A program made the translations under genes and the position numbers. A stretch of 64,000 bases of DNA, taken from assembly GCA_964503465.1 (NCBI GenBank), contig CAZCYZ010000001.1, positions 129,702 through 193,701 on the forward strand, in the 5' to 3' direction. This stretch comes from an uncultured Gammaproteobacteria bacterium (GTDB taxonomy: Bacteria > Patescibacteriota > Microgenomatia > UBA12405). This document shows positions 22,963 through 59,633 of the stretch, piece by piece; within the stretch, counting starts at the first letter, position 1, and every line of letters starts with the position of its first letter. Below the pieces are notes generated by a model. It was not told where the DNA came from. It saw only the letters and a program-made list of their open reading frames with translations, and made no database searches.

Positions 22963-25900
22963 GTGCGTCCATTCAAGTTTTTTGGGATATTGTTTTGCGC
23001 AGTAGCATTGGCCTTCTTGACCATAAGTCCATCTTTTGCTGTTAATCAAGCCACCATCACTTCCCTGACTGTTTCTGACTCAGCTGTTGGTGCTACCAAT
23101 GTTACCTACACTCTTCAGTTTCAATTAGATACCGAAATTACCGCCGACACAGCCAAGTCAATGAATTTTGATCTCAACAGAATGAGTACCAAAAGTACCT
23201 GGGAAGGTGGAGATCAAACATCCAACATGGCCACGGCCACTGGCACCTTTAGCAGTTTTCAATATGACAGTACTGGTAGTGGTAATTGGGTCGATATTGA
23301 CTTTGGCGGCGCTAGTTATTTTCACAAAGAAATTTCAACCGACAATTCACTGTTAATTTGGGGTCTAGGTTATGTCGACAATAACGACATCCATTCGATT
23401 CAAACAACCATTCCTGTCAACAAAACGGTCAAATTAGTTGTTACTGGTGTTACTAACCCCAATAAAGCCGGTGCTTATACTTTTAGTATTGAAAGTGGTT
23501 TAGGACCAGCTAGTGACACCTACTGGTTGTTGCCCCAGGATTCTCTTGCTCGGGACCGAGCTCTGTATGTTGATATCGGCACCTATTGTTTACGGGCCAA
23601 GATCAAAGATCCTACCGGGGCTACTGCCATTGCCAAGGCCGAACTCTATCTTCACAATTCTAACTGGACCATCACTTCTTGGGGCGGTAGAACTTTTGCC
23701 GATGGTGCTGTCTCTTACTACCCAGATGATTTCTGGTACACTGGCGGTCCGGCCCAGGAAACCTGTCCTACTGGCATAATTACCATCGAAGCCAACCCTC
23801 CAGGTGGCGTAAATACTTATGCCAAGGCTGTCGATAAGACACCCACATTACCGGGGGATAAAGACACTTATTACAATACCCCGATTACTATGTCGGCCAT
23901 TCAGCTTCAGGGTAGACTTCATAATCCTGCCGTCTCCTCTGGTCAGTATCACTATATCACCAACTCTAATGTCAGTTTTACTCCTTCCGACTTTAATCCA
24001 ACGGGGTTTAAAAACACTCAATCCGACAACAACGGAATTTTCAGAATTGGCGGTTTAGCCGTTGGAACTACCTACACCGTTGGATTTATGATGCCTTGGG
24101 ATAGTGGTTACGGAGGTATTAATGTCCCCGATTCATTTCAAGTTGTTGTTGATGCTGACGGGAAAGTAAAAACGGTCGCCGTCGGCGGCACTTGCCCTGA
24201 TTTTGCCGTTAATTGTGATTTGGGTGACATTGATTACACTGTCGCTACTAAGACCATCACCGGTACCCTCAAAGACAGTGATGGTAACCCAATAACCAGT
24301 GGTCGTATTCGAGCTTTTAAAGAAATGGGCATGGGCCAAGCCCAGGACGAGGTCGACTCCAACGGTAATTATTCTCTAACTGTCGGTGGCGGTACCTGGG
24401 GATTGCAGCCTGAACCCAATTGGAATCCTAGTAGTCCTCCCGATTGGTCTTATTGTGGTATGTCTAAATTTTTTGTCTTTGCCGGTGATACTACTGTCGA
24501 GACCAAAACTAGTGCCAATAGTAGTGGTCAAACAGACTTTACCGTCAAGAGAACTACTGTCACCGTCACCGGTGATGTCGTTTACCCCAACGGCAATCCA
24601 CTAACCGGCCAGGGTGGAGTTGAAGTTCGATCCAAGGAAGGTTGCGGTACCTTTGCTCAATTGGATATGAATGGTCATTTTTCCACCAAAGTTGCTCCCG
24701 GAACCTACAATGTTATGGTTCAAGTTTGGGATCAAACATACAGTGCTCCGTCTGTTCAAACCATCACCGTCTCTACCAGTAATTACAATGTTGGGACTCT
24801 CACTCTAACCGAAAAGAAAGACACCATTACTGGCCGAGTTTGGAATGATATCGATGGCGACAATACTTACGATTCCGGCGAGGGAATCAGCGGTCAACAG
24901 ATAAATGCCTCTAAAATGTCCAAAAAATTTGATGAATTTGGCGGTCCAGGCAGTGGTCCGATGATGGGTCCTGGCGGTGGTGATTTTAGCGGTACCACTA
25001 GTGGTAACAATGGAGTTTATTCTCTAAAAGTTACTCCGGGTACCTGGATGATTAATCTTATGTCCGACCCAGGGATGATGGGGGGATATTCCGAAAGCAG
25101 CACTAATTATATTTACAACGGCAGTCCGCTTGAAGTCAATGTTACCTCCTCGGCTAATGGTGGCACCTTCCCTGACAATAATTTTAAACTTACTGTTGCC
25201 GACGCCACCATTAAAGGCAAGCTGGTTGATAGTAACGGTACTGCTATTGCTGGTGTTTGGGGTTTTGCTTTTGCTGATACCGGTTCAGGTGGACCAATGA
25301 TGGGTGCTGGCATGGGGGCTCCGATTCAAAATGGTATCTTCACCATCAAGGTTCCTGCCGGCACTTACAACGTCGGCGTCGAATTTCCTCCCGAATCGTC
25401 TGGGTATACTCCCGCCTCGTCAACTGAAACCACTATCACCGCCGGTGAAACCAAATCAATTGATATTACTGTTAAACCCAATAACCGGAGGATAAAAGTT
25501 AACTTCAAAGACACCAACGGTAACCCTATTACCACCCTTTCTCAAGCTAATATTTTTGCCGACAACAGCAGTGGCGGTCATATGTTTAAAATGCTTTATG
25601 GTTCGGATCTGGTTAGCGGATCAACTACTCTTTCTGTTAGCGAGGGCACTTGGAATATTGGCTACTTCATTGATCCGACTACTAACAACTATATGTCCGA
25701 ACCCATGTCCAAGGACAATGGTATTACTGTTACTAGTGTTCATACTGCCGATAATCCGGCTGTTCTTAATATTACTCTTCGTAGTGCCGATTCAACCATT
25801 TCAGGTACTGTCACCGGTCCAACTGGCACTGCCTTGGCTGGTGTTTGGATTTCCACCGACAACCGTAAAGCCTCAGGATTCTCTAGTGGTGGCCCAATGT

Positions 25901-27366
25901 TCATGACTGGCAGTGCCACCGACTCAAACGGTAGTTATTCTATTTCTTTACCAGCCGGTACCTATAAAGTTCAGGCGTTCTTGCCTCCGTCAATGGGCTA
26001 TATTAATCCAGATGGAGTCGAGGTGACAATCAGTCCAAGTAGCCCTGGCGTCGCCAATTTACAGTTTAGTCAATCCGACGCTACTATTACCGGTTCTGTC
26101 TACCTAAACGAGGTTAAAAAAGGTGCCTTTATTTCCGCCTATTCGGACAAGGGTGGTTATAGTGAAACCAATGCTAATAGTGGTGATTATTCTCTCAATG
26201 TCACCAAGGATGACACTTGGTATGTTCGTGCTATGTACGAAACCGGTTCTGATTTTTACCAAAGCACCATTAACAAAGTCATTATGGCTGGTGCATCCAC
26301 CAAAAGCCAAAATCTTACGCTCACCAAAGCCTCATTCACCTTACCTGATTCAGTTTCAACTACCTTTGACTATCAGAATGCTAAAAAAATTAGTCTTAGT
26401 AACGGTTTCAATCTATCTATCCCTGCCGGCGCCATTCCCCCCACTAGTAACGCTACGGGAGATAACATTACTATCACCATTTCGCCTACCTCACAACTTT
26501 CTACCCAAAATAAGGCCATTCCCATTGGTATTGGTTATGAAATTACTGCCACCGATGACTCTGGTAGTCTTATCACCTCCAATTTTAACGACAATGTCAC
26601 CATTACCATTCCTTACACCGCCACCTATCTTGAGGAGGCGCTTGGTTCCAGTGACGAAACCTTGCTTGATAATGGTTATTGGGATACCACCACTTCTACT
26701 TGGAAAGGTATAACCGGTACCACCATTGACACTACTAATAAGACTATTTCCTTCACGGTTAACCACTTTACCACCTTCTCTATCCTCTCCAACAAAGACC
26801 CCAATACTGTTGGTGGCTCATCCGGTAGCAATTCTACTCAAGCTAGTACCAACAGTAACAGCACTCCAAGTTGCAACAGTCAGGTGCCAGGCAGTGCTCC
26901 AACTTTATTCAGAATCGATCGTACCAAAACCACTGCTAAACTTTACTTTGCTCCCTCCAGCGATCCGGTCACTTATTACTATATTGCTTATGGCCACAAG
27001 GTAGGGGATTATCGCTATGGGGCATCTTTTGACCAAGGACATTCAGGGGGTGTACTAACCTACACTATCAAAAGCCTCAAGCCCAATGTTAAATACTATT
27101 TTTCAATCCGTGCCGGTAACGGTTGCATGCCTGGACCATGGTCAAATTGGTTCCCCAACAAAAATGCCAAAGTAACTCCAGTTACTGCCTCGACATCTCT
27201 CAGGGCAAAAAACAATGCTGCGACTACCAACCTACCTCAACCCTCAATTCCCCCGGTGGTCGAAGCTCTCCCTACTTCTACTCCTCCTCCAAAACCACTT
27301 CCTACCCCCACTCCTAAGAAAAACATTTTTCAACAAGGTCTCGAATGGTTGAGGAAAATCATCTAG
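22963..27366 (+). CDS. giant secreted surface protein with tandem carboxypeptidase-regulatory-like/Ig-like beta-sandwich modules and a C-terminal FN3-like domain
   Basis: 1467 aa with a GTG start and a signal peptide, MRPFKFFGILFCAVALAFLTISPSFA. The module signature recurs: GTLKDSDGNPITSG, GDVVYPNGNPLTG, GKLVDSNGTAIAGV and GTVTGPTGTALAGV, each followed by GxYxV. An SdrD-B-like GRVWNDIDGDNTYDSGE is present. The C-terminus has an FN3-like YYFSIRAGNGCMPGPWS and a Pro-rich tail. Confidence 0.8.
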   Translation: MRPFKFFGILFCAVALAFLTISPSFAVNQATITSLTVSDSAVGATNVTYTLQFQLDTEITADTAKSMNFDLNRMSTKSTWEGGDQTSNMATATGTFSSFQYDSTGSGNWVDIDFGGASYFHKEISTDNSLLIWGLGYVDNNDIHSIQTTIPVNKTVKLVVTGVTNPNKAGAYTFSIESGLGPASDTYWLLPQDSLARDRALYVDIGTYCLRAKIKDPTGATAIAKAELYLHNSNWTITSWGGRTFADGAVSYYPDDFWYTGGPAQETCPTGIITIEANPPGGVNTYAKAVDKTPTLPGDKDTYYNTPITMSAIQLQGRLHNPAVSSGQYHYITNSNVSFTPSDFNPTGFKNTQSDNNGIFRIGGLAVGTTYTVGFMMPWDSGYGGINVPDSFQVVVDADGKVKTVAVGGTCPDFAVNCDLGDIDYTVATKTITGTLKDSDGNPITSGRIRAFKEMGMGQAQDEVDSNGNYSLTVGGGTWGLQPEPNWNPSSPPDWSYCGMSKFFVFAGDTTVETKTSANSSGQTDFTVKRTTVTVTGDVVYPNGNPLTGQGGVEVRSKEGCGTFAQLDMNGHFSTKVAPGTYNVMVQVWDQTYSAPSVQTITVSTSNYNVGTLTLTEKKDTITGRVWNDIDGDNTYDSGEGISGQQINASKMSKKFDEFGGPGSGPMMGPGGGDFSGTTSGNNGVYSLKVTPGTWMINLMSDPGMMGGYSESSTNYIYNGSPLEVNVTSSANGGTFPDNNFKLTVADATIKGKLVDSNGTAIAGVWGFAFADTGSGGPMMGAGMGAPIQNGIFTIKVPAGTYNVGVEFPPESSGYTPASSTETTITAGETKSIDITVKPNNRRIKVNFKDTNGNPITTLSQANIFADNSSGGHMFKMLYGSDLVSGSTTLSVSEGTWNIGYFIDPTTNNYMSEPMSKDNGITVTSVHTADNPAVLNITLRSADSTISGTVTGPTGTALAGVWISTDNRKASGFSSGGPMFMTGSATDSNGSYSISLPAGTYKVQAFLPPSMGYINPDGVEVTISPSSPGVANLQFSQSDATITGSVYLNEVKKGAFISAYSDKGGYSETNANSGDYSLNVTKDDTWYVRAMYETGSDFYQSTINKVIMAGASTKSQNLTLTKASFTLPDSVSTTFDYQNAKKISLSNGFNLSIPAGAIPPTSNATGDNITITISPTSQLSTQNKAIPIGIGYEITATDDSGSLITSNFNDNVTITIPYTATYLEEALGSSDETLLDNGYWDTTTSTWKGITGTTIDTTNKTISFTVNHFTTFSILSNKDPNTVGGSSGSNSTQASTNSNSTPSCNSQVPGSAPTLFRIDRTKTTAKLYFAPSSDPVTYYYIAYGHKVGDYRYGASFDQGHSGGVLTYTIKSLKPNVKYYFSIRAGNGCMPGPWSNWFPNKNAKVTPVTASTSLRAKNNAATTNLPQPSIPPVVEALPTSTPPPKPLPTPTPKKNIFQQGLEWLRKII

Positions 27367-44308: not shown

Positions 44309-45031
44309 ATGGACAAAAAACATCCTCACCATCTTGGTCTTTTTATTCTTCTTGCCTCCATTATTTGGTCGTTTGCCTTTTATCGGGCTAAAGTCGTTAC
44401 TTCTCGTCAAACCATTTCTGTCACTGGTGTTGCTTATCAAGATGTTACTTCTGACTTAGCCGACTGGTCATTTACTCTAGAGCGTCGGGACTCAGGTCGG
44501 AAAAATAGTTACGACAATTTGTTGTCCGACGAGAAAAATTTTCTTGATCATCTTAAGAAACTCAACATTACCGATTCCGAAATCCGCAAAGGCACTTACC
44601 ACACTTTTCCTGTTTACCGTAAGGAAAACTATACCGATACCGACGAAATCATTGCTTACACTTCCACCATCAATTATTCCATTGTTGGTTCTGACATTAG
44701 TAAAATTGCCAACATTGCCGACAATATCAATGCCTACTTAATCGCCAATAATCTTACTCTCTCTCAAAACTATCAATCCTACACCTACAATCAACTCGAA
44801 GGGCTCAAGATCTCTCTCCTCGAAGCCGCTATCAAAAATGCCGAAAGTCGGGCCAAAGCCATTGGTAAAACTACTCATTCCCGAATTGGGAAGATCGTTA
44901 ATGCTTCCCAGGGGATTTTTCAAGTCAACCCCAGAAACGACTACAGTGTCTCCGGTGAAGGCAACTTTGATACTTCCTCCATTGGTAAAACTATCCGCGC
45001 CACTGTTTCGGTTGATTTCGAGCTCAAGTGA
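44309..45031 (+). CDS. SIMPL (DUF541) domain protein with N-terminal TM anchor
   Basis: TM helix LGLFILLASIIWSFAFY. The pattern ISVTGVAY...SFTLE...LEAAIKNAESRAKAIGK...IRATVSVDFELK resembles the SIMPL/DUF541 family. The ATG is at 44309; the track start at 44258 would overlap the cyclase gene. Confidence 0.6.
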   Translation: MDKKHPHHLGLFILLASIIWSFAFYRAKVVTSRQTISVTGVAYQDVTSDLADWSFTLERRDSGRKNSYDNLLSDEKNFLDHLKKLNITDSEIRKGTYHTFPVYRKENYTDTDEIIAYTSTINYSIVGSDISKIANIADNINAYLIANNLTLSQNYQSYTYNQLEGLKISLLEAAIKNAESRAKAIGKTTHSRIGKIVNASQGIFQVNPRNDYSVSGEGNFDTSSIGKTIRATVSVDFELK

Positions 45032-45040
45032 TGTCATAAT
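45012..45040 (+). promoter_or_regulatory. candidate promoter of the proS T-box leader
   Basis: TTGATT (45012-45017), a 17-nt spacer, then TGt-CATAAT (45035-45040, extended -10). Confidence 0.45.
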
Positions 45041-45046
45041 TCCCTC

Positions 45047-45183
45047 AAACCTATGAAACCGTTTCCCGCGGTGGAGGTGACGGCGACGAGCCGCTCCAGA
45101 AACAAACTGTAAAATATTCATCAAGAAGTAAATAGGGTGGTACCACGACGCTTGCGCTCGTCCCTAACAGGACGAGCTTTTTT
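45047..45183 (+). promoter_or_regulatory. T-box riboswitch leader controlling proS
   Basis: The conserved T-box sequence AATAGGGTGGTACCACGACG lies at 45131-45150. The antiterminator can be drawn by hand: helix A1 AGGG (45134-37) with CCCT (45162-65), a 7-nt bulge TGGTACC (45138-44), and helix A2 ACGA/CG (45145-50) with CG/TCGT (45055-61 offset +100, i.e. 45155-45161). A competing terminator lies at 45156-45183. Confidence 0.8.
45156..45183 (+). terminator. T-box terminator hairpin
   Basis: GCTCGTCC-ctaaca-GGACGAGC followed by TTTTTT. Its 5' arm overlaps the 3' strand of the antiterminator. Confidence 0.8.
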
Positions 45184-45281
45184 AGTTTCTTTAGGTCTAA
45201 TTTTAAACCGAAGGTGATAAAATTTGCCTAAAGACACAATCCCGATGGGCAGACAATGTTGGGATAGTTTAAAATTTGACT

Positions 45282-46715
45282 ATGGATCAACAATTCAAAA
45301 AAGAACAACTTAAGGATCGCAATCTTGATTTATCCGAGTGGTACAACGATATTGTTCTCAAGGCCGAATTGGCCGACTACGCCCCCGTCAAGGGCTGCAT
45401 GGTCATCCGCCCCTATGGTTATGCCCTTTGGGAAGGAATCCAGAACTTTATGGATAAGCTCATCAAGGACTATGGCGTTCACAATGCCTATTTTCCCCTC
45501 TTTATCCCCATGCATTATCTTCAAAAAGAAAAAGAACACGTTAAAGGTTTCTCCCCTCAACTAGCGGTAGTTACCCATGGCGGTGGCGAGAAGCTTGCTG
45601 AAAATTTGGCTGTCAGGCCCACTTCCGAAACTATTATGTACGACATGTATCGCAAGTGGACTAATTCTTGGCGTGATTTACCCATCCTCATTAACCAGTG
45701 GTGCAATGTCGTTCGATGGGAAAAACGCACCTATCTCTTCTTGCGCACTTCAGAGTTCTTGTGGCAGGAGGGCCATTGTGCCCATCTAACCCAAGAAGAA
45801 AATCTCAAAACTGTTTTCTGGGCTCTGGATATGTATCAGCAAACTTACAACCAACTTCTGGCCATGTATGGCATCAAAGGTGTCAAAAGTTCCAGCGAAA
45901 AATTCCCTGGTGCCGGTAACACTTACACTTTTGAATCCCTCATGCCCAATGGTAAATCACTTCAAGCTTGCACCTCCCATGATTTGGGTCAAAACTTCAG
46001 CAAGTCGTTTGAGTGGACAGTTCAGGATCAGTCAAAAAACAAAATTTATCCTTATCAAAACTCTTGGGGCTTTTCTACTCGCAGTATCGGCGGCCTGATC
46101 ATGGCCCATGGTGATCAAAACGGTCTTAAACTTCCTCCTAGCATTGCCCCCATCCAGGCCGTTATCGTTCCTATTCCTGGTCACTCCCAAGCCCTTCCCC
46201 AGGCCGACAAAATTTATCCCCAGCTCAAAAACAATTTCCGGGTCAAACTTGACGACTTTGAAGGTGAAACCGCAGGTTTCAAGTTCAATCATTGGGAACT
46301 CAAGGGTGTTCCCCTTAGAATCGAAATTGGCGACCGTGATGTTAGTAATCATAGTGCCGTTTTGGTCCGCCGTGACACTGGTGAAAAAGTTACTGTCGAT
46401 GTTGATAACCTTAACTCATCTATTACCAAAATCTTGGCCGATATTCAGGACTCACTTTTTGCCGCTCACCAAAAATTTACCGACAGTCACACCCATTCTG
46501 TTGATTCCTATCAGGACTTTAAACAGATTATGTCCACCGATCGTGGTTTCATTCGAGCCCATTGGTGTGAAGATGCCAATTGTGAAACCAAAATCAAAGA
46601 CGATACCAAAGCGACCACCCGTTGCCTTCCTCTTGATGCTCCCACGGAATCTGGTAAGTGCATTTATTGTGGCCGCCCCTCAACTCATCGCTGGCTCTTT
46701 GGTCTTAGTTACTGA
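45282..46715 (+). CDS. proS: prolyl-tRNA synthetase, archaeal/eukaryotic-like type (no bacterial INS editing domain, C-terminal zinc-binding domain)
   Basis: Motifs WYNDIVLKAELADYAPVKGCMVIRPYGYALWE and RTSEFLWQEGH, class II motifs, and a C-terminal CEDANCE...CIYCGRPS. The ATG is at 45282; the track start at 45276 is TTG. Confidence 0.93.
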   Translation: MDQQFKKEQLKDRNLDLSEWYNDIVLKAELADYAPVKGCMVIRPYGYALWEGIQNFMDKLIKDYGVHNAYFPLFIPMHYLQKEKEHVKGFSPQLAVVTHGGGEKLAENLAVRPTSETIMYDMYRKWTNSWRDLPILINQWCNVVRWEKRTYLFLRTSEFLWQEGHCAHLTQEENLKTVFWALDMYQQTYNQLLAMYGIKGVKSSSEKFPGAGNTYTFESLMPNGKSLQACTSHDLGQNFSKSFEWTVQDQSKNKIYPYQNSWGFSTRSIGGLIMAHGDQNGLKLPPSIAPIQAVIVPIPGHSQALPQADKIYPQLKNNFRVKLDDFEGETAGFKFNHWELKGVPLRIEIGDRDVSNHSAVLVRRDTGEKVTVDVDNLNSSITKILADIQDSLFAAHQKFTDSHTHSVDSYQDFKQIMSTDRGFIRAHWCEDANCETKIKDDTKATTRCLPLDAPTESGKCIYCGRPSTHRWLFGLSY

Positions 46716-49505: not shown

Positions 49506-49751
49506 ATGGACCCAACCCAAATAGTCATTATTCTCAGCTTGATTTCCATCACTGTTGTTTTTGTTGTTGTTGGTATTTGGCTAGTTCTTGTTCTTCGTGA
49601 AGCCAAACAAATTCTTGAAGATACTCACTCTATTACTTCTTCAGTCGCCAAACCAGTTAATTCTTTTTCCGAATTCTTGATGGGCTTCAAAAACGGCTTT
49701 ACTCTTTTCAACAAGTTTTTTCCCGACAACCAAGATGAGTCAAAGAAATAA
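49506..49751 (+). CDS. small membrane protein (81 aa)
   Basis: N-terminal TM helix IVIILSLISITVVFVVVGIWLVLVL. It is on the same strand and tightly packed. Confidence 0.45.
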   Translation: MDPTQIVIILSLISITVVFVVVGIWLVLVLREAKQILEDTHSITSSVAKPVNSFSEFLMGFKNGFTLFNKFFPDNQDESKK

Positions 49752-50031
49752 TTCATGTGATTGTTGTTCATCTTCCTCTTCTGGTTTTGTTTTTGGTCTT
49801 ATTTGTGGTGCCATTATCGCCGCTCTAGTGGCCATTTATGTCTACCGTAATCCCAAGTCAGAAGTTTTCCAAAATCTCAAGAAAAAGTTTGACGAATTTT
49901 TTAAAACCAAATCATCCCCACCTCCAAAGAACCACAAAAAATCTGTCACCCTCCCTCCTATGTTGGCTGTTACCACCCCTCCTTCGGCTCCCAAGATCAA
50001 AGCTAAAAAGTTTCTCAAACCGAAGAAATAA
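49735..50031 (+). CDS. small membrane protein (98 aa), YtxH-like appearance
   Basis: TM helix GFVFGLICGAIIAALVAIYVY followed by a Lys/Pro-rich tail. It overlaps the upstream ORF by 17 nt. Confidence 0.4.
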   Translation: MSQRNNSCDCCSSSSSGFVFGLICGAIIAALVAIYVYRNPKSEVFQNLKKKFDEFFKTKSSPPPKNHKKSVTLPPMLAVTTPPSAPKIKAKKFLKPKK

Positions 50032-50061
50032 TCTCTCTCGTTTCTGTTATATAATTCCCCT

Positions 50062-51822
50062 ATGACTCCTCGGGATTTAAAGGACAAATTTGTTAAATTT
50101 TTTGTTAATCGTGGCCATGTCGAAATTCCCAGTGCTTCTCTCGTTCCCGAAAATGATCCAACCACTCTCTTTATATCCGCTGGGATGCATCCACTAGTTC
50201 CATTTTTACTCGGCCAGCCGCACCCTCTGGGTCAGCGTTTGGTTGACGTTCAAAAAAGCCTCCGTACCGGCGATATTGAGGAAACAGGGGATACTGTTCA
50301 CCACACTTTTTTTGAAATGCTTGGTAATTGGAGTTTGGGTGATTATTTCAAGAAAGAACAAATTGAATGGAGTTATGAATTCCTAACCAAAGAACTTGGC
50401 TATGACCCTGCAGCTATCCATGTTACCTGTTTCGAAGGCGATATCGATGCTCCAAAGGATGAAGAGTCGGCCGCCATTTGGGAATCAGTTGGAATTCCTA
50501 AAGACAGGATTCACTTTCTTCCCAAGAAAGACAACTGGTGGGGTCCGGCCGGATCTACTGGTCCTTGTGGTCCCGACACCGAAATGTTTGTTGACACTAA
50601 ACCAGAAGAAGGACCAATTGATTTTGTTGTCGGTTGTCAATCATGTCGGATCGTTGAAATTGGTAACGATGTTTTTATGCAATATAACAAAACTACTAAT
50701 GGTCAATATGTTCTTTTGCCTCAGAAAAATGTCGATACTGGTTGGGGAGTTGAACGCAACACTGCTATTGCCAATGGTCACGCCGACAATTATTTAACGG
50801 TCATATGGCAACCAATTATTAAAAAGATCGAACAACTATCAGGTAAAAAATACGACCAAGATCCTCGACCTTTCAGAATTATTGCTGACCATATCCGTGC
50901 GGCTGTTTTTGTTATCGCTGATGGTGTTGAACCCAGCAACAAGGAAAGGGGATATGTCCTTCGTCGTCTTATTCGCCGCTCGATCCGTCAGGGAAAACTA
51001 CTAGGAATCGAACATAACTTTATCGTTGCCATTGGTCGGGCGGTTCTTGATAATCAGGGAAATTACGCTGGGATCTATCCTGAACTAAGTCAAAACAAAG
51101 ACAAAATTTTAAATATTCTTGATCTTGAGGAAAATAAATTCCGCAAAACCCTAAACCACGGTCTTTCACAAATCCAAAGACTGATCGATCGCCAAAAGTC
51201 TGTTTCCGGTCAAGAGGCCTTTGATATTTATCAAAGTTTTGGTTTTCCAGCCGAAATGATTGAGGAAGAACTCAAGAAAAACAATTTAACCTTAGATATC
51301 GATGAGTTTAACAAATTTAAACTAGATCATATTGAAAAATCTCGCACCCTTTCTGCTGGTATGTTTAAATCCGGCCTGGCCGACCATTCTGAAGCCATGA
51401 CCAAATATCATACCGCCACTCATCTTCTTCACGCCGCCCTTCGTCAGATTCTTGGAACCCATGTTCAGCAATCGGGTTCCAATATTACCGCCGAGCGTCT
51501 TCGTTTCGATTTTTCCCACCCAGACAAACTTACCGACGACCAATTGGCTCAAGTTTCTAATTTAATAAACCAAAAAATAACCGAAGGGATTGAGGTTAAG
51601 GTTGACACCATGAAATTTGTTGACGCCAAAAATTCCGGTGCTCTAGCTTTTTTTGGGGCCAAATATCCCGAAGTTGTTACCGTCTATACCATTAATGGTT
51701 TTTCCAAAGAAGTCTGTACTGGTCCTCACGTCACCAATACCTCAAAGCTTGGTCAGTTCCAAATTATCAAAGAAGAGTCGGCTGGTAGTGGTAAACGTCG
51801 CATCTACGCTATACTAATTTGA
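50062..51822 (+). CDS. alaS: alanyl-tRNA synthetase (short form lacking the C-Ala/DHHA1 domain)
   Basis: Motifs FFVNRGHVEIPSASLVP, FEMLGNWSLGDYFK and WWGPAGSTGPCGPDTE. The editing domain has HTATHLLHAALRQ and CTGPHV. The protein ends after the editing domain at 586 aa. Confidence 0.94.
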   Translation: MTPRDLKDKFVKFFVNRGHVEIPSASLVPENDPTTLFISAGMHPLVPFLLGQPHPLGQRLVDVQKSLRTGDIEETGDTVHHTFFEMLGNWSLGDYFKKEQIEWSYEFLTKELGYDPAAIHVTCFEGDIDAPKDEESAAIWESVGIPKDRIHFLPKKDNWWGPAGSTGPCGPDTEMFVDTKPEEGPIDFVVGCQSCRIVEIGNDVFMQYNKTTNGQYVLLPQKNVDTGWGVERNTAIANGHADNYLTVIWQPIIKKIEQLSGKKYDQDPRPFRIIADHIRAAVFVIADGVEPSNKERGYVLRRLIRRSIRQGKLLGIEHNFIVAIGRAVLDNQGNYAGIYPELSQNKDKILNILDLEENKFRKTLNHGLSQIQRLIDRQKSVSGQEAFDIYQSFGFPAEMIEEELKKNNLTLDIDEFNKFKLDHIEKSRTLSAGMFKSGLADHSEAMTKYHTATHLLHAALRQILGTHVQQSGSNITAERLRFDFSHPDKLTDDQLAQVSNLINQKITEGIEVKVDTMKFVDAKNSGALAFFGAKYPEVVTVYTINGFSKEVCTGPHVTNTSKLGQFQIIKEESAGSGKRRIYAILI

Positions 51823-53861
51823 TGTCCTCTTTTTGGTTAATTGTTCTTCATTCCACCCATCTCTCGGTCGTCCTAGTTGAAGGAGAACAGATTGTTGCCA
51901 CTGGCCCAAAAGTTGATTGGAACCCCGACGATGATTCGATAACCTTGGCTGTCGATCAATCACTTTCGCAAGCAGCCGAAAACCATAACCTATCCCCATC
52001 AAACGAGCCTACTCAAGCCGCTTTCGTCCTTCCTCCTGATTGGGTTGGTTCCGACGGCAAAATCACTTCTCGAATTCTGTCCAAAATTGAACTAGTCTGT
52101 CGCCAGCTAAAACTAGAGCCCATGGGTTTTGTTGGCCAGGATGAGGCCATTATTGAAAGTTTTAATTCCAATGGCGGTGTTCCTGCTAGTTTTGTTCTTA
52201 TCCATTTCGATCACCAAAGCTTTGATATCTCATTAATATTCTTAGGTCAAATCAAAAAACGTATTTTTCAGAGTTTCACTCCACCATTTACCCCCACCAT
52301 CCTTGAGTCAGTTCTCAATTCACTCGATCAAGATTCAACTCTTCCTCCTCGAATTATCGTTTTTGGCCACGTTTCCGAATCAGCCGTTACCGATCTGACT
52401 AATTATCCCTGGTTAAACAAACCAGATTTTAAGGCTTTTCTTCAACTTCCTGAAATTACTTATTATCCTGAATCCGAACTTATCAAGATCTATGTCGATT
52501 TAATACTTCACCAACTTCAACCACCATCCTCATCCGTTGCCTCCCCTCCACCACCTCCTCCGGAACCCGTTACTCCTCTCAACGAAGTCAGTCCCGAATC
52601 TTTTGGTTTTGGAGTAAACAATTCCGTTTTAAAGCCCGAAATCTCCCCCCCGACAATTTCCAACAGTCAACCCGTTAGACCTCCATCCCGCCCAACATTC
52701 ACTTTTCCCAAAATCAAGTTGCCTCATATTAGAATTAAACTCAAAACGAATTGGTTGTTCGCTTTCGTTTTTGTCCCGACACTATTACTAATTCCGTTTT
52801 TCTTTCTCAAAACACATCTTACTCTTTATATTAACCCTTATGTTTATTCACAGCAGTTTCCAGTCACACTTACCACCAAAATCTCCACCCTGGATACAAA
52901 TCAAAAATTAATCCCCGTCAAAGCCCAATCTTTTACTGTCACTGCCAGTGCCACCACTCCCTCAACTGGCAAGCTCACTATCGGCAATAAGGCTCGGGGA
53001 GAGATTACTATCTATAACCAACAAAACAAAGTCCAAAATATCGCCAAAGGTGCCATTATTACTGATCCAACTGGTAAAAAATTTGAACTTTTTGTTGCCA
53101 CCAACGTAGCTTCTAGTAGTTCCAATCTAGACGCTGGTATTGTCACCCTAGGCCAAACCAAAGCAACCGTAATTGCCGTTGACGTTGGCCCAGAGTACAA
53201 CCTCACCAAGGACACCAAGCTCATCTTCAAAGATTACCCCGACACTCTTCTTCTCGCTCGTTGCTCTCAGGCTTTTTCTGGTGGTAGTCGTCAGGAAGTA
53301 AATGCCGTTGCCCTTGCCGATAGAACCACCCTCGACCAAAAACTTCAGTCTCTATTAAATAGCAACATTACTGCCAAAATCGACCAAGAATTCAAAGCCA
53401 ATTCTGATATTATCAAGGAATTTTCCCAGACCAAAAAAAACCGTATTGATTTTAGTCGTGAGGTCAACGAAGAGGCAGATGAATTATCAGCTACCTTAAC
53501 TGCTTCAGTCACCCTTTTCTCACTTGCTATTCCCAAACCGCAAATTATTACGGCTTTCCTGGCCACTGACTCCACTCTTCCCCAGTTAAATTTTGATACC
53601 GATCTATCCTCCCTCAGTTTTCAGGTAAACAAATCTGATGCCAATCAAGCCTCGGCTGTTCTTAACATTCAAGGTCAGGCCTTACCCAAAATTGATATTT
53701 CCGGTCTCCAACGTAAACTTATATTTAGAACACCATCCTCTGCTGCTAAAATTCTTCAGCAACAAGTTGATCGTCTTTACGATTTCCGTCTTGTTCCAAG
53801 CTTTATTCTTCCAATCCGTCCTCAAAATATTATCATCGATATCAAAACCAACAATCAATGA
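51819..53861 (+). CDS. hypothetical bitopic membrane protein (possible actin-like/FtsA-PilM-like N-domain; baseplate-J-like C-domain)
   Basis: 680 aa. The order is a cytoplasmic N-domain, a Pro-rich linker (PPPPPPEPVTP), a TM helix (WLFAFVFVPTLLLIPFFFL) and a large external domain. The external segment GEITIYNQQNKVQNIAKGAIITDPTGKKFEL...ATVIAVDVGPEYNL reminded me of baseplate J/gp47-like repeats. The domain calls are tentative. Confidence 0.5.
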   Translation: MMSSFWLIVLHSTHLSVVLVEGEQIVATGPKVDWNPDDDSITLAVDQSLSQAAENHNLSPSNEPTQAAFVLPPDWVGSDGKITSRILSKIELVCRQLKLEPMGFVGQDEAIIESFNSNGGVPASFVLIHFDHQSFDISLIFLGQIKKRIFQSFTPPFTPTILESVLNSLDQDSTLPPRIIVFGHVSESAVTDLTNYPWLNKPDFKAFLQLPEITYYPESELIKIYVDLILHQLQPPSSSVASPPPPPPEPVTPLNEVSPESFGFGVNNSVLKPEISPPTISNSQPVRPPSRPTFTFPKIKLPHIRIKLKTNWLFAFVFVPTLLLIPFFFLKTHLTLYINPYVYSQQFPVTLTTKISTLDTNQKLIPVKAQSFTVTASATTPSTGKLTIGNKARGEITIYNQQNKVQNIAKGAIITDPTGKKFELFVATNVASSSSNLDAGIVTLGQTKATVIAVDVGPEYNLTKDTKLIFKDYPDTLLLARCSQAFSGGSRQEVNAVALADRTTLDQKLQSLLNSNITAKIDQEFKANSDIIKEFSQTKKNRIDFSREVNEEADELSATLTASVTLFSLAIPKPQIITAFLATDSTLPQLNFDTDLSSLSFQVNKSDANQASAVLNIQGQALPKIDISGLQRKLIFRTPSSAAKILQQQVDRLYDFRLVPSFILPIRPQNIIIDIKTNNQ

Positions 53862-56137: not shown

Positions 56138-57104
56138 TTAACTCATTTAGTATTTTCCATCGTCTTTTTTTCTCTTTTGGAGGAATGTCATCTTTGTAAA
56201 TTTTTGCCGAAACTGTTCCCCGTCGTGGTGAATATTTATTAATATAAGCAATTTCAAAACCAACTTTTTGGCACAAATCTACCGTATTTTGAAAAGCCGG
56301 TTCATCCTCACCTGGAAAACCAACAATAATATCAGTCGACAATCTTACTCCCTCAATCGCGGTTCTTATTTTGTTGACCAACTTCAAATAATCCTCTCTG
56401 GTGTAACCCCGATTCATCTTTTTAAGTATTTCATTATCCCCGGATTGAATCGGCAGATGAATCAGCCTGTCAATATTCTGGTGTTTGGCTATTACCTGTA
56501 TCAGTTCGTTATCAAAATCCCATGGATTGCTACTAATAAACGATACTTTCCTTAACTTTCTACCGGCCACCTTATCCAGTAAATCAAAAAACTTTCCTTT
56601 TTGCCAAGAATTGACGCTTTGTCCAATCAGCATTACTTCCTCAAAACCTTCTTTTATGGCTTTGTCTACTTCCTCAAGAATTTCTTTTTCACTTCGATAC
56701 ATTTCTCGCCCTCTGGAATAGGGGACTATACAATAGCTACAATAATGGTCACAACCACTACTAATGGGTATCAATGCCGCTCGCTTCTTGTCTCTTATTG
56801 GCCCATCAACCTCAAATTTCTTTATTGGCCACCACTCCACTCCTTCGATTTTTTTCTTTCGCACGGGCACTAAACACCCGGTAATAATTATTCTTTTACT
56901 TTTTATATTGTTAATCAGGCCGTAAACTCTATTTTCTGCCGATTCTCTAATCACACAGGTATTTATCACTACCAGGTCAGCTGTTTTTAAGTCGTCCACC
57001 TCTTCGTACCCCTTTGTCCAAAAGTATGCCCGTATTTTTTCTGAATCAGCTTGGTTTTGAATACAACCAAAAGTTTTAATGTGAAATCTTATAACCTTAT
57101 TCAT
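56121..57104 (-). CDS. MiaB/RimO-like radical-SAM methylthiotransferase lacking a TRAM domain
   Basis: The UPF0004 domain has FHIKTFGCIQNQADSE. The radical-SAM cluster is SSGCDHYCSYCIVP. The protein ends without a TRAM domain. An ATG at 57104 is preferred over the track start at 57170, which would overlap the divergent gene. The 3' end overlaps mltG by 17 nt. Confidence 0.85.
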   Translation of the reverse strand: MNKVIRFHIKTFGCIQNQADSEKIRAYFWTKGYEEVDDLKTADLVVINTCVIRESAENRVYGLINNIKSKRIIITGCLVPVRKKKIEGVEWWPIKKFEVDGPIRDKKRAALIPISSGCDHYCSYCIVPYSRGREMYRSEKEILEEVDKAIKEGFEEVMLIGQSVNSWQKGKFFDLLDKVAGRKLRKVSFISSNPWDFDNELIQVIAKHQNIDRLIHLPIQSGDNEILKKMNRGYTREDYLKLVNKIRTAIEGVRLSTDIIVGFPGEDEPAFQNTVDLCQKVGFEIAYINKYSPRRGTVSAKIYKDDIPPKEKKRRWKILNELINVGI

Positions 57105-57160: not shown

Positions 57161-57721
57161 ATGGATTCAAATCAACAGTACCAAGATATTCTTGATCAAT
57201 ATCAAAAGACTTTTAGTAATCCGCCTTCACCCTCAGTACCAGCCCCCCCTCAACCACTCGAATCAGTACCTCCATCTCCAGTACCTCCTCCTTCACCTGT
57301 TTTACTTCCACCTGTTTCACCCCCACCCATATCACCGCCACCACAACCGGTTTTACCTCCACCCCCACCTGTTCAAGCCCTGACTAAGCCAAGTAAGGAC
57401 TCAACTATTTTCTTTAAAATTTTGTTTATCCTTTCCTTTCTTCTATTTTTAGGAGTTGCTGCTGCCGTTGTTTATAATCTCCTAAGCCAACAATTGGGGT
57501 CAAACCCTCTTCCTATCAAAAAAATTACTACCACCCCATCGGAAACGCCCACTCAAGCAGTTTCTTTTTGCGAACTCAACGATCAACGTTACCAAGTCGG
57601 TCAATCATTTCCCGCCGCCGATGGCTGCAATACCTGTACTTGTCTTGAGGACTTAACTATTAGTTGCACCGAACTTTCTTGTGACATTACTCCTGCAGTT
57701 TCTCCGGTAAATGGATCATAA
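57161..57721 (+). CDS. bitopic membrane protein: Pro-rich N-terminus, TM helix, small Cys-rich (VWC-like) ectodomain
   Basis: The N-terminus is PPSPSVPAPPQPLESVPPSPVPPPSPVLLPPVSPPPISPPPQPVLPPPPPV. The TM helix is IFFKILFILSFLLFLGVAAAVVY. The C-terminus is CELNDQRYQVGQSFPAADGCNTCTCLEDLTISCTELSC. Confidence 0.6.
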   Translation: MDSNQQYQDILDQYQKTFSNPPSPSVPAPPQPLESVPPSPVPPPSPVLLPPVSPPPISPPPQPVLPPPPPVQALTKPSKDSTIFFKILFILSFLLFLGVAAAVVYNLLSQQLGSNPLPIKKITTTPSETPTQAVSFCELNDQRYQVGQSFPAADGCNTCTCLEDLTISCTELSCDITPAVSPVNGS

Positions 57722-59633
57722 CCGTCCCCGAATAATTATTTTTCTTTTTGTACTTATTGCCATTATTTTTGTCGATATTTTATTGGTCATTTATCGTCGG
57801 CAGTCCCCTCCTGCCCCAACATCCCCCGATCTCACCTCCACTTGGAAGACCTACGAGAACAAAGAATACGGATTCTCGCTTGAGTATCCGGGTCAGTATG
57901 GTCTTAAGTCGGACACGACCAACAATCTAACCAATATTGTATCCTCCGACTACCGCGACGACTCCTACGACTCCGAACCTGGTGCGGCATATCAATACGC
58001 CTCAGCAATGTTCGGAATATCAGTTGAAGATCGTGCTTGCACTCCGCCGTCCGTAGACACATCTAACCCATCTTCGGCAAAAACCACCATCGTTTCAACC
58101 AAGGATGTTGCAACAGGTGTTGTGTACGGATTTCAAAGTTACCCAGATAACTACAGTTTGTTCCAGGCTAGAATGTTCAATAACAAGTGCCTAGTTATTT
58201 CTTGTTTATCTTCAACCAAAGGTTGTTTGGAAAATGAAGTCAGTGAGGAATTTAACCAAATCCTTTCTACTCTTCAGTTTGCTGATCCTGCCTCTACCTG
58301 GAAAACATACGAAAACAAAAAATATGGTTTTTCTTTGCAGTATCCAAGTACATGGACTGTGGAAGAAAGTACAAATTCATCCCCCTCGGTCTCCTTCAAC
58401 CCTCATATAGATTCTCCCCACCTGGCCGGCCCAATAGAACCAAAAGCAGTCCCGTATGAATTAACAATTGATAAAACCAATGATAATTTTGACAAGTGGA
58501 AACAAAGGAATAATTTTCTCCCTGATATAAAGTTTTCCGTCCTGAAGATAAATAACTTGAATTTATATATTACCCGAGATCTACCGGATATGTTTGGTAA
58601 TTATGATGTCTTTGTAGATTATCCGGATGGCAGTGGTTTATTGAGATTTACTTTGTTTCCCGTCGAGGATGATCAGGAGTTAGATAACAAAATAATATCT
58701 ACTTTTAACCAAATTCTCTCCACTTTTAAATTTCTTGACACCCCCGATCTCACCTCCACTTGGAAGACATACGAGAACAAAGAACTTGGAATTAGTTTGA
58801 AGTATCCGTCGTCTTGGTACCCAGAAGGTAATTTCTTAATGCACGAAACCTGCAAAGCAAACACTAGCTGCCTGACATTGTCATTCAGTTTGACACCAAA
58901 ATCACTTCAACAATTAACCTCCGAGATTGCCATTAATGATGGTGCAGTCGACAATACCGACACCAAACCTACCCCGGTTATGGTCAACAACTTGTCTGGT
59001 TTCGAGCTTGTATACGGTGATGCCATGGGCTTAGGTAACCGAAAAATATATCTTAGTCGTCTCAACCAAAATCTTTTGATCGAACACATTATTCATGAAT
59101 CGAATCTAAAATCACAAATTAACCAAATCCTAGCCACTCTCGTCTTTAATCCCCTCGACTCTACCTCCACCTGGAAAACCTACGAAAATAAAGAGTACAA
59201 CTTTACTTTCAAATACCCGGCTACACTTAAGTTAGAACAAAATTATAATTCCCAAGATCACAAGAATTATTACGTTTCCCTTAGTAACTACAGTGAAGAC
59301 CAAACCCAGATACTACATGTATCTGAGAACTACATAAAGATCGAATTTATCACCGAAGATCTCTCCTCTGTTTCTAACATTTCTGAATTTGCCAACGACC
59401 CCAACATATTTTTACGCCACGTCAAAGACCAGCACCTTTCTGGCAATGATCCAACTAGTGCACAATCCCAAGTCATCGGCGGCCATAACTGTTGGTATAT
59501 CAAAGGGTCAGACACATCAGTTCATTGCTTTGATTCAGTTCATAAGAGGGAGTTCATCATTAGTAGAGGCATCCCCACTATTGCTTCACTGTCCGTTTTT
59601 GATCAAATTTTATCAACTCTAAAATTCCTTTAA
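57711..59633 (+). CDS. membrane-anchored exported protein with four tandem copies of the STWKTYEN...ILSTLKF domain
   Basis: It has an N-terminal TM helix. Four modules each open with (T)STWKTYENKEYGFSLxYP and close with FNQILSTLxF. The module starts lie near 57823, 58290, 58741 and 59159. Confidence 0.75.
   Translation: MDHNRPRIIIFLFVLIAIIFVDILLVIYRRQSPPAPTSPDLTSTWKTYENKEYGFSLEYPGQYGLKSDTTNNLTNIVSSDYRDDSYDSEPGAAYQYASAMFGISVEDRACTPPSVDTSNPSSAKTTIVSTKDVATGVVYGFQSYPDNYSLFQARMFNNKCLVISCLSSTKGCLENEVSEEFNQILSTLQFADPASTWKTYENKKYGFSLQYPSTWTVEESTNSSPSVSFNPHIDSPHLAGPIEPKAVPYELTIDKTNDNFDKWKQRNNFLPDIKFSVLKINNLNLYITRDLPDMFGNYDVFVDYPDGSGLLRFTLFPVEDDQELDNKIISTFNQILSTFKFLDTPDLTSTWKTYENKELGISLKYPSSWYPEGNFLMHETCKANTSCLTLSFSLTPKSLQQLTSEIAINDGAVDNTDTKPTPVMVNNLSGFELVYGDAMGLGNRKIYLSRLNQNLLIEHIIHESNLKSQINQILATLVFNPLDSTSTWKTYENKEYNFTFKYPATLKLEQNYNSQDHKNYYVSLSNYSEDQTQILHVSENYIKIEFITEDLSSVSNISEFANDPNIFLRHVKDQHLSGNDPTSAQSQVIGGHNCWYIKGSDTSVHCFDSVHKREFIISRGIPTIASLSVFDQILSTLKFL

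Follow-up and report, generated by a model that had tools for sequence, protein, structure and literature searches.

Proline T-boxes of the Firmicutes (B. subtilis proBA and proI, and proS leaders) sense tRNA-Pro and control proline-related genes, as would the compact leader reported here, but they are built as full-length class I T-boxes, which it is not; the specifier of the B. subtilis proline T-box is CCU. T-boxes with a short or ultrashort Stem I occur in actinobacterial ileS leaders and were, reportedly, described in 2015 by Sherwood, Grundy and Henkin as class II and translational. Complexes of such ileS T-boxes have been solved (M. tuberculosis, 6UFG; N. farcinica, 6UFM; PMC7583486, PMC10651847). 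Published reviews tie transcription termination to a long Stem I, and Stem III is described as indispensable in the T-boxes studied (PMC7583486). The short-Stem-I model of TBDB was run on Actinobacteria only.

Upstream of proS in a 64,000-nt stretch of DNA (the window, meaning the whole stretch that was analysed), we identified a leader whose parts are given in Table 1 and which we read, at a probability of roughly 80% and on sequence grounds, as a proline-specific T-box riboswitch of minimal design that would control proS by transcription attenuation. A sequence-only reading had earlier taken the leader for a T-box, unusually compact and with an ultrashort Stem I, in front of an archaeal-type ProRS gene in a reduced-genome bacterium, and all of this stood: the T-box elements are in place, the RF00230 model matches and homologues covary; after 4 bp, Stem I closes with a 7-nt loop; the proS product scores 551 bits against TIGR00408 (cutoff 437) and carries the Pfam domains tRNA-synt_2b, HGTP_anticodon and ProRS-C_1; and the host belongs to the CPR.

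With the actinobacterial ileS T-boxes the leader shares a truncated Stem I without the elbow-binding distal platform, a K-turn at the Stem I base, a putative decoding module of Stem I, Stem II and a IIA/B pseudoknot, and a discriminator core in which a UGGN bulge separates A1 from A2. It differs from them in its specifier (predicted proline CCC vs. isoleucine), its hosts (Microgenomates and Saccharimonadia of the CPR vs. Actinobacteria), its Stem II (an ~18-nt hairpin with a GAYRA pentaloop vs. a long helix that contains an internal S-turn), the size of its decoding module (~70 nt vs. ~99 nt), the lack of Stem III in half of the listed CPR members, the window copy among them, and its expression platform, which is a U-tract intrinsic terminator in 17 of the 20 listed CPR members vs. 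an SD sequestrator. Canonical class I T-boxes (RF00230; B. subtilis tyrS and glyQS) have in common with it the T-box sequence, the competition of antiterminator and terminator, the K-turn, a specifier with C in third position followed by a purine, an F-box-like CCGUAAA in IIA/B, and a position upstream of an aminoacyl-tRNA synthetase gene; in contrast to them, ~70 nt of Stem I are gone here (specifier internal loop with S-turn, AG bulge and distal loop), the predicted specifier is carried by a terminal heptaloop, the window copy has no Stem III, and the first A2 pair is A-U instead of G-U.

Table 1. Features of the proS leader, in window coordinates (two-digit residue numbers follow 450).
Feature	Position	Strand	Composition and basis
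Promoter	45012..45040	+	-35 TTGATT 45012-17, 17-nt spacer, extended -10 TGtCATAAT 45032-40; promoter scan
Ultrashort Stem I	45049..45078	+	K-turn, 4-bp helix and 7-nt loop; base helix A49:U78, C50:G77, C51:G76; K-turn 45050-57 with 45073-77 (UAU bulge, G55-A75 and A56-G74 pairs); upper helix ACCG/CGGU 45058-61 with 45069-72; terminal loop UUUCCCG 45062-68; RNAalifold on unfitted alignment
Predicted specifier CCC (proline)	45065..45067	+	followed by purine G45068; in 7-nt Stem I terminal loop
Mini Stem II	45079..45096	+	2-bp lower helix (G79:C96, A80:U95), bulged C94, 4-bp upper helix CGGC/GCCG, pentaloop GACGA 45085-89
Stem IIA/IIB	45097..45118	+	IIA CAG/CUG 45097-99 with 45107-09; loop AAACAAA; F-box-like CUGUAAAA; weak IIB 3' strand UAUU 45115-18
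Purine-rich linker	45119..45132	+	...CAAG-AAGUAAA in the usual place of Stem III, which RF00230 deletes
Antiterminator (discriminator core)	45133..45166	+	A1 UAGGG/CCCUA 45133-37 with 45162-66; bulge UGGUACC 45138-44; A2 ACGACG/CG(C)UCGU, 4+2 bp, 45145-61; loop CUUG
Intrinsic terminator	45156..45183	+	8-bp stem GCUCGUCC/GGACGAGC, 45156-63 with 45170-77; loop CUAACA; U6 45178-83; terminator scan
proS	45282..46715	+	archaeal/eukaryote-like ProRS, 477 aa

RF00230 matched the leader at 45044-45168 with 32.1 bits (E = 1.6e-5 locally, 0.0023 over the whole window), in an alignment that runs end to end with 76 model positions deleted. The sequence-only reading had staked itself on a significant covariance-model match, and this held only in part, because the score falls below the Rfam gathering score of 93; twelve other members, at 34-58 bits, fall below it as well, which puts the members scored at 32-58 bits. 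A sub-threshold score is what one would see if an ordinary terminator happened to lie next to a fortuitous GGTGGTACC motif, and a relaxed form of the core motif (one mismatch) does occur five times in the window vs. two expected; however, comparison among relatives refutes such a chance resemblance, which we regard as scarcely credible. The whole 125-nt leader is kept across at least 20 distinct sequences (the window copy and at least 19 others) from Microgenomates and Saccharimonadia, consistently linked to proS, with compensatory changes spread over seven helices. In the model-fitted alignment (20 sequences listed), 94.9% of cells are paired vs. 33-49% when the 3' partners are slid, and 18 of the 25 pairs show changes on both sides (values for pairing and covariation reached by 0 of 500 shuffles); Stem I and A1/A2 also emerge when RNAalifold is run on an alignment that was not fitted to the model. 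Conservation upstream of proS in relatives, on which the earlier reading had also relied, was thus found, and together with the compensatory changes we take it, as evidence from sequence, to be decisive against chance.

Six leaders, the window copy included, were located through proS with the leader sequence left free; in L082, L085, L086, L087 and L088 the leader lies before proS or a tRNA_bind-proS pair. A metagenome scan that constrained Stem I alone returned at least 15 further full-length leaders, all with a matching discriminator domain (62-103 bits); as its query fixed the loop as TCCCR, it covers compact T-boxes with a CCC specifier only, and the family size is a lower bound. The family model R1, which counts the window copy among its six training sequences, scores that copy at 133 bits, the second highest value. 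Weak R1 matches elsewhere were set aside, one in L155 being an unrelated, larger T-box ahead of purine-biosynthesis genes and a second site in L107 having no T-box bulge. The exact core motif GGGTGGTACCNCG had zero matches in 81 loci (L001-L081, with the leader-bearing relatives not among them), and in the leader-bearing relatives the replacement of AGGG by AAGG or AAGA would explain its misses.

All members with a readable downstream gene have proS there, or tRNA_bind and then proS. Since the same compact leader is also found ahead of bacterial-type ProRS genes, both long and short, and of a tRNA-binding-protein gene, its tie to a non-bacterial ProRS is incidental. It is also dispensable, because the close relatives L001, L083 and L084 have a ProRS 75-80% identical to that of the window yet no T-box; none was found in the nearest GTDB relatives L001-L003 or in L083 and L084. 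Upstream of alaS in the same window there is no compact T-box, the gap holding two small ORFs and a promoter only. Among the aminoacyl-tRNA synthetase genes seen here, proS alone carries the leader.

Within Stem I, the upper helix is 98.8% paired, with double changes in three of its four pairs (fitted alignment), and the GAA and GGAG elements are invariant; the distal platform (AG bulge and distal loop, which contact the tRNA elbow) and a recognisable S-turn internal loop are both absent from the window leader. The terminal loop reads NNUCCCR in 6 of 6 proS-anchored leaders, which had been found with no loop constraint, and we therefore place the predicted specifier at its CCC, whose expected partner is a GGG anticodon on tRNA-Pro. 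CCC is the commonest proline codon in the window (32.5%); searches of the window and of 28 loci yielded no tRNA-Pro gene. The restriction of proS to CCC and CCT codons was considered as a family trait and dropped, because relatives do not share this usage. None of the three specifier candidates named earlier is the conserved one: CCT (45050-52) belongs to the base helix and K-turn, CCG (45059-61) forms the upper helix on its 5' side, and CCA (45096-98) straddles the Stem II/IIA junction. Nor did the upstream hairpins proposed with them survive, as the GGAG/CUCC pairing at 45073-45097 is neither conserved (L088, for instance, has no CUCC) nor backed by covariation, and the alternative at 45068-45094 likewise shows no covariation.

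Stem II and IIA are present and covarying in the fitted alignment. The lower pair of Stem II varies across the family (CG 7, AU 6, GC 2, UA 2, GU 1), its upper pairs covary too, and in 15 of the 20 listed members the hairpin is capped by C-GAYRA-G or by a GAAA variant of it; an AGUA/GAA internal loop is absent, the GAYRA pentaloop standing where RF00230 aligns the S-turn. Stem IIA occurs as CAG/CUG, CGG/CCG and CGU/ACG. For the IIB pseudoknot, the IIA loop can form on average 3.68 pairs with the segment downstream vs. 2.62 in mismatched combinations, and 0 of 5000 permutations reached the observed mean. The window's own IIB, at 2 pairs, is the weakest of the family, and this weakness raises the alternative that, within a genuine family, the window copy has become a decaying relic that no longer senses tRNA, its terminator merely ending transcription from the upstream SIMPL gene while proS is expressed from a promoter in the spacer. 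Losses nearby would fit such decay: T-boxes have often been lost among close relatives, and the window locus is missing tRNA_bind, which comes directly after the leader in the nearest relatives, L082 and L085. We found no remnant of this gene in the spacer (45184-45281), which aligns to the proS start only, and no copy elsewhere in the window; a faint tRNA_bind match at 56259-56402 proved to be part of a radical-SAM methylthiotransferase. The spacer does hold a promoter-like site (TGGGCA-18-TAAAAT, 45246-75) that ends 6 nt before the proS ATG and could drive proS independently, but five such sites turned up in the 2-kb region scanned vs. 3.4 expected by chance. Against decay, all other elements of the window copy (K-turn, CCC loop, Stem II, IIA, bulge, A1/A2, terminator and promoter) are intact and consensus-like, and its R1 score ranks among the highest, albeit from within the training set. 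L082, the nearest relative of the window copy, likewise has an IIB of only 3 bp, all A-U, and a plain hairpin can stand in for most of the pseudoknot function (PMC7583486). We consequently judge a relic unlikely, and keep a functional T-box as our preferred reading.

No Stem III helix (RRRxG ... AA flanks) was found between 45110 and 45132, where the flanking purines CAAG and AAG are kept. Stem III is absent in 10 of the 20 listed members, which retain RAG-AAGUAA, and in those that have it the hairpin is inserted exactly between RAG and (G)AAG.

The discriminator core agrees closely with what had been read from the letters. The T-box sequence AAATAGGGTGGTACCACGACG lies at 45130-45150, the 7-nt UGGUACC bulge sits between A1 and A2, and A2 is closed by CUUG; A1 is present as noted, although it has 5 bp instead of 4. 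Both helices are well paired among the 20 sequences listed (A1 98%, A2 97.5%) and both show double changes. The UGGU of the bulge is invariant in the family, and its proposed pairing with an ACCA end fits a tRNA with an A73 discriminator. In the window A2 begins with an A-U pair; the RF00230 consensus calls for G-U at this place, a wobble that has been described as the steric sensor for aminoacylation (PMC7583486).

The terminator scan recovered the proposed GCTCGTCC/GGACGAGC hairpin with its T6, and this hairpin shares the 45155-66 region with the 3' strands of A2 and A1, so that terminator and antiterminator are mutually exclusive, as had been claimed. The terminator is the minimum-free-energy fold, computed at -15.2 kcal/mol vs. 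-8.5 kcal/mol for the antiterminator, and a terminator with U-tract is found in 17 of the 20 listed members. All published ultrashort-Stem-I T-boxes are translational (PMC7583486), and it could be that this T-box too works chiefly at the level of translation or mRNA stability, as a functional switch like those of actinobacterial ileS; L150, the only listed member that looks purely translational, has an SD-sequestering hairpin without U-tract, and several Microgenomates members have GGAGG inside the terminator 3' strand. In the window, however, U6 comes right after the competing hairpin, 100 nt separate this hairpin from the start codon of proS downstream, and its 3' strand (GGACGAGC) is no SD sequence, and the Saccharimonadia members have a U-tract terminator and then a separate SD. 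We consider a mainly translational mode very improbable here, and return to attenuation of transcription.

The promoter scan gave the same TTGATT-17-TGtCATAAT site that had been proposed, with its TG extension. The -35 box lies within the 3' end of the SIMPL gene (stop codon 45029-31), the transcription start is predicted at ~45046-48, and almost every family member has a -10-like hexamer whose end is 4-6 nt ahead of a conserved CAAA; the -10 box keeps this 4-6 nt distance from Stem I. Under transcription attenuation, RNA polymerase would start a few nucleotides before Stem I (~45047), and uncharged tRNA-Pro, most likely the GGG-anticodon isoacceptor, would pair with the CCC presented by the terminal loop of a Stem I made of a K-turn and a 4-bp helix only. 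We infer that this all-G-C codon-anticodon helix would be buttressed by three elements: the K-turn, the IIA(/B) element, and the small Stem II, whose GACGA loop is rich in purines. The free 3' ACCA of the tRNA would then pair with UGGU (45138-41) and stabilise the A1/A2 antiterminator, allowing read-through into proS, whereas charged tRNA-Pro would be unable to do so, and the more stable terminator (45156-77 and U6) would stop transcription. So small a decoder is plausible because strong G-C codon-anticodon pairs let glycine T-boxes do without Stem II (PMC7583486).

We could not find a compact proline T-box family described in the literature searched. Tentatively, and with slightly less than even confidence, we propose that these leaders are the first to be described of a class of minimal T-boxes that spans the CPR (~120-125 nt, counted from Stem I through the antiterminator), and that they would attenuate co-transcriptionally with neither an elbow platform nor an S-turn Stem II and, in half of them, no Stem III. 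The all-G-C helix of CCC specifier and GGG anticodon may make up for part of the lost contacts. CsaA/Trbp111-like proteins form a family that binds the tRNA elbow, and a co-transcribed protein of this kind may compensate in many members. That the leader stands on proS and not on alaS raises the question of why genome-reduced symbionts retain one such switch. If the proposal is true, parts that the literature treats as required for transcriptional T-boxes or for sensing of the tRNA 3' end would be dispensable, which would challenge both the rule that transcriptional T-boxes need a long Stem I and the description of Stem III as indispensable (PMC7583486). A tRNA-sensing module of ~120 nt would also appeal to structural biologists and engineers as a minimal scaffold. 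The family would show how small a T-box can become in nature while still being conserved, and would extend T-box regulation to the CPR/Patescibacteria, whose sequences of this kind the Rfam threshold leaves out.

Every element proposed by a sequence-only reading for a compact T-box riboswitch at 45012-45183 (promoter, T-box sequence, bulge, antiterminator and terminator) was present on checking, and the archaeal type of the ProRS encoded downstream was borne out by its family scores. Within the antiterminator, the bulge and helix A2 were as described, and A1 has 5 bp rather than 4. The terminator 5' strand shares bases with the 3' halves of helices A2 and A1, and its computed energy (-15.2 vs. 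-8.5 kcal/mol for the antiterminator) makes it the more stable structure, as in the usual default-off arrangement; the platform is of the plain terminator type. We put the probability that this leader functions as a proline T-box through attenuation at roughly four in five.

Features of the window leader and its gene
Feature	Position	Strand	Description	Basis
Extended -10 promoter	within 45012-45183	+	TTGATT-17-TGtCATAAT	consensus scan
Stem I	45049-78		3-bp base helix, K-turn, 4-bp helix, 7-nt loop	
Stem II	45079-96		2-bp lower helix, bulged nucleotide in 3' strand, 4-bp upper helix	
Stem IIA	45097-109		with F-box-like CYGUAAA	
IIB pseudoknot			IIA loop with segment ~5 nt further 3'	
Purine-rich junction			RAG/AAGUAA; Stem III hairpin inside in 10 members, none in 10 (window among these)	
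T-box sequence	45130-50	+	AAATAGGGTGGTACCACGACG	read from sequence
Helix A1			UAGGG/CCCUA, 5 bp	
Bulge	A1/A2 junction		UGGUACC, 7 nt	
Helix A2			ACGACG/CG-C-UCGU, loop CUUG	
Terminator	45156-63 (5' strand)	+	8 bp GC-rich + T6	consensus scan
proS	45282-46715	+	archaeal/eukaryote-like ProRS, 100 nt 3' of leader	TIGR00408 551 bits vs. cutoff 437; Pfam ProRS-C_1

Across the whole window, every Rfam family stayed below its gathering score. At permissive thresholds, the Rfam T-box family RF00230 aligned end to end over 45044-45168 (E = 1.6e-5 local, 0.0023 whole-window), scoring 32.1 bits where the gathering score is 93; the alignment kept the Stem I base, Stem II, IIA and the antiterminator, and deleted 76 Stem I positions and the whole of Stem III. 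By itself this match is suggestive of a T-box, short of conclusive. Twelve other members of the family described below scored 34-58 bits on the same model, every one under the gathering score.

ProRS homologs place the host in the Microgenomates group of the Candidate Phyla Radiation (CPR), near Shapirobacteria and Woesebacteria. The leader was found in none of 80 proS loci of GTDB species representatives, the closest three (L001-L003) included. Among closer homologs from a large protein collection, we found it in L082 (ProRS 86% identical), L085 (72%), L086, L087 and L088, and did not find it in L083 and L084. A metagenome scan, run with a pattern that fits Stem I of each of the six leaders and leaves the remaining leader unconstrained, and filtered with a covariance model of the six proS-anchored leaders (R1), added at least 15 further full-length leaders (62-103 bits on R1) and at least two truncated ones. 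Source labels and nearest named homologs assign members to Shapirobacteria, Daviesiibacteriota, 'Patescibacteria group' and Saccharimonadia, and judged from these sequences the family is one that spans at least two CPR classes. Its presence is patchy even where ProRS is 75-86% identical. L001 has no T-box, and its proS directly follows RNase J; the 3' half and T-run (CAGGACGAGCATTTTT) of a hairpin there (2920-2985) are homologous to the window T-box terminator (score 29 vs. a shuffle maximum of 23), which hints at a trace of T-box loss. A different, larger T-box lies at 1296-1465 of L155, a contig of ~60% GC, upstream of formyltransferase-like, purH-like and purD-like ORFs of purine biosynthesis; its Stem I is longer, a Stem III is present, and its R1 score is 26 bits.

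The comparison with relatives that the sequence-only reading called for yielded covariation. In an alignment of 21 sequences (20 distinct rows), standard pairs fill 94.9% of cells, as opposed to 33-49% after a shift of the 3' partners by 1-3 columns, and 18 of 25 pairs carry two-sided changes (82 cells); none of 500 shuffles reached the observed values on any pairing measure. The alignment was model-fitted and hence biased toward structure; this bias is offset by the ungapped, fixed-length Stem I and by RNAalifold, which, given a plain MAFFT alignment restricted to the six leaders anchored on proS, independently predicted Stem I and the bulged A1/A2.

The Stem I K-turn of the window has a UAU bulge with G55-A75 and A56-G74, and the 4-bp helix above it reads ACCG/CGGU, CCGG/CCGG, GUGG/CCAU, AGGG/CCCU or GGAG/CUCC across the family; likewise, the second pair of the lower Stem II helix is CG, AU, GC, UA or GU. 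Stem II carries a GAYRA pentaloop or GAAA variant in 15 of 20 members, which RF00230 places on the canonical Stem II S-turn GAA...AGUA, so that the pentaloop may be a collapsed S-turn. The IIB partners vary by member (e.g. UAGC/GCUA, UUCA/UGAA, UGAG/CUCA, UUCGG/CCGAA, UGGG/CCCA, GCCA/UGGC) with a mean helix of 3.68 pairs vs. 2.62 for mismatched loop/tail combinations, a mean reached by none of 5000 permutations; the window has the weakest IIB of the family (two A-U pairs; three in its nearest relative, L082). UGGU does not vary. In nearly all members a -10-like hexamer ends 4-6 nt 5' of an invariant CAAA, which places the predicted transcript start at the foot of Stem I.

The six leaders found via proS alone have the Stem I loops UUUCCCG, UUUCCCG, CAUCCCA, UAUCCCG, UCUCCCG and UAUCCCG, whose common pattern, U-CCC-purine, fits the T-box rules that a purine follows the specifier and that its third position is C (PMC7583486). 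We therefore favour CCC (proline), the invariant triplet of the loop, as the probable specifier; a CCR register, which would read CCG in the window and CCA in L085 and likewise encode proline, keeps a small residual probability. The candidates of the sequence-only reading had to be abandoned: CCT 45050-52 falls in the base helix and K-turn, CCG 45059-61 in the upper helix, and CCA 45096-98 at the Stem II/IIA junction. Of the proline codons in the window, CCC is used most often (32.5%), weakly supporting a GGG isoacceptor. A search for a tRNA-Pro gene from which to read the anticodon and A73 found none in the window or in 28 loci. Within proS itself the proline codons are CCC (13) and CCT (8), with neither CCA nor CCG, which make up 37% over the window's genes; this bias was not found in relatives with or without the T-box.

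Since the search pattern fixed their loops, the metagenome members are uninformative on the specifier; the genes downstream of them, where readable, are proline-related and do provide evidence for it. Archaeal-type ProRS follows the leader in L089 and L122, and long bacterial-type ProRS in L104 (NF006625, 570 bits) and L140 (assigned by 571-aa length, N-terminus and source label). Short bacterial-type ProRS (~410 aa) stands behind a tRNA-binding-protein gene in L107 (TIGR00409, 467 bits) and in L105, L125 and L127 (assigned by length and N-terminal similarity), and L097, L103, L113 and L151 hold partial frames with bacterial-ProRS N-termini. In L082 and L085 the leader is followed by a 111-aa CsaA/Trbp111-like tRNA-binding-protein gene (2661-2996 in both) and then immediately by proS; such a ~110-aa protein (PF01588, NF007495) is also encoded by the first gene after the T-box, just ahead of proS, in L150, L105, L107, L125 and L127. 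Such a protein might assist ProRS or a platform-less T-box. The gene is absent from the window locus and elsewhere in the 64 kb, and the 100-nt spacer before proS holds no remnant of it, despite intact synteny (upstream SIMPL 83% identical to that of L082).

Of the 20 members, 17 carry a terminator followed by a U-tract. Saccharimonadia-type members have the terminator and then a separate Shine-Dalgarno (SD) sequence, indicating classic attenuation, and several Microgenomates members, which could be under dual control, carry GGAGG inside the terminator 3' strand with the U-tract abutting the start codon. L150 carries a hairpin that sequesters the SD, with no U-tract after it; L086/L161 and L089 keep an intact antiterminator with no recognisable terminator or sequestrator at the leader 3' end.

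Between the T-box terminator and proS, the window also holds a strong hairpin at 45185-45236 (-17.8 kcal/mol, z-score -5.0; 0 of 200 shuffles matched its stability) that lacks a 3' U-tract and has neither a second copy within the window nor a homolog among related loci. A promoter-like TGGGCA-18-TAAAAT (45246-45275) ends 6 nt 5' of the proS ATG; it could yield a leaderless proS transcript bypassing the T-box, or the match may be fortuitous in a sequence this AT-rich. Elsewhere, alaS (49506-51822 region; short form, 586 aa, NF002436) has no T-box leader upstream: only ~30 nt with a TATAAT-like box precede it, and the apparent gap is filled by two short ORFs predicted to encode membrane proteins (49506-49751 and 49735-50031). 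Three large ORFs (22963-27366, 51819-53861 and 57711-59633; 1467, 680 and 640 aa) matched nothing in NCBIfam at E <= 1e-10. All 4-kb bins show a negative GC skew (-0.05 to -0.27) and nearly all long ORFs are on the + strand, so the coding strand consistently has C > G.

A full-text literature search combining T-boxes with Candidate Phyla Radiation or Patescibacteria returned no relevant report, and the TBDB class II model was run only on Actinobacteria and class I hits (PMC7778990). An intermediate or 'ultrashort' Stem I is the mark of translational actinobacterial ileS T-boxes (PMC7583486), of which N. farcinica ileS has a decoding module of ~99 nt and a long Stem II with S-turn (PMC10651847). 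Transcription-terminating T-boxes are associated with a long Stem I, and Stem III is regarded as indispensable in the T-boxes studied (PMC7583486). The CPR family shares the logic of that class; however, it would sense another amino acid, in another phylum, its Stem II is far smaller, and, as the main difference, it is coupled to intrinsic terminators. Stem III is often missing with its flanking purines kept, and 18 of 20 members begin A2 with an A-U pair, whereas the consensus there is the G-U 'steric sensor'. By its core defining features the window leader is a genuine T-box; it is also one that departs from several canonical-family features, from the Rfam threshold and from the translational platform defining the known ultrashort class. 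The weak IIB, the lost tRNA-binding-protein gene and the possible private proS promoter cast doubt on the window copy, which nevertheless likely still works as a putative switch. Glycine T-boxes may be without Stem II, given a strong G-C-rich codon-anticodon helix (PMC7583486), and by analogy an all-G-C CCC:GGG duplex would offer a rationale for the reduced decoder of this family.
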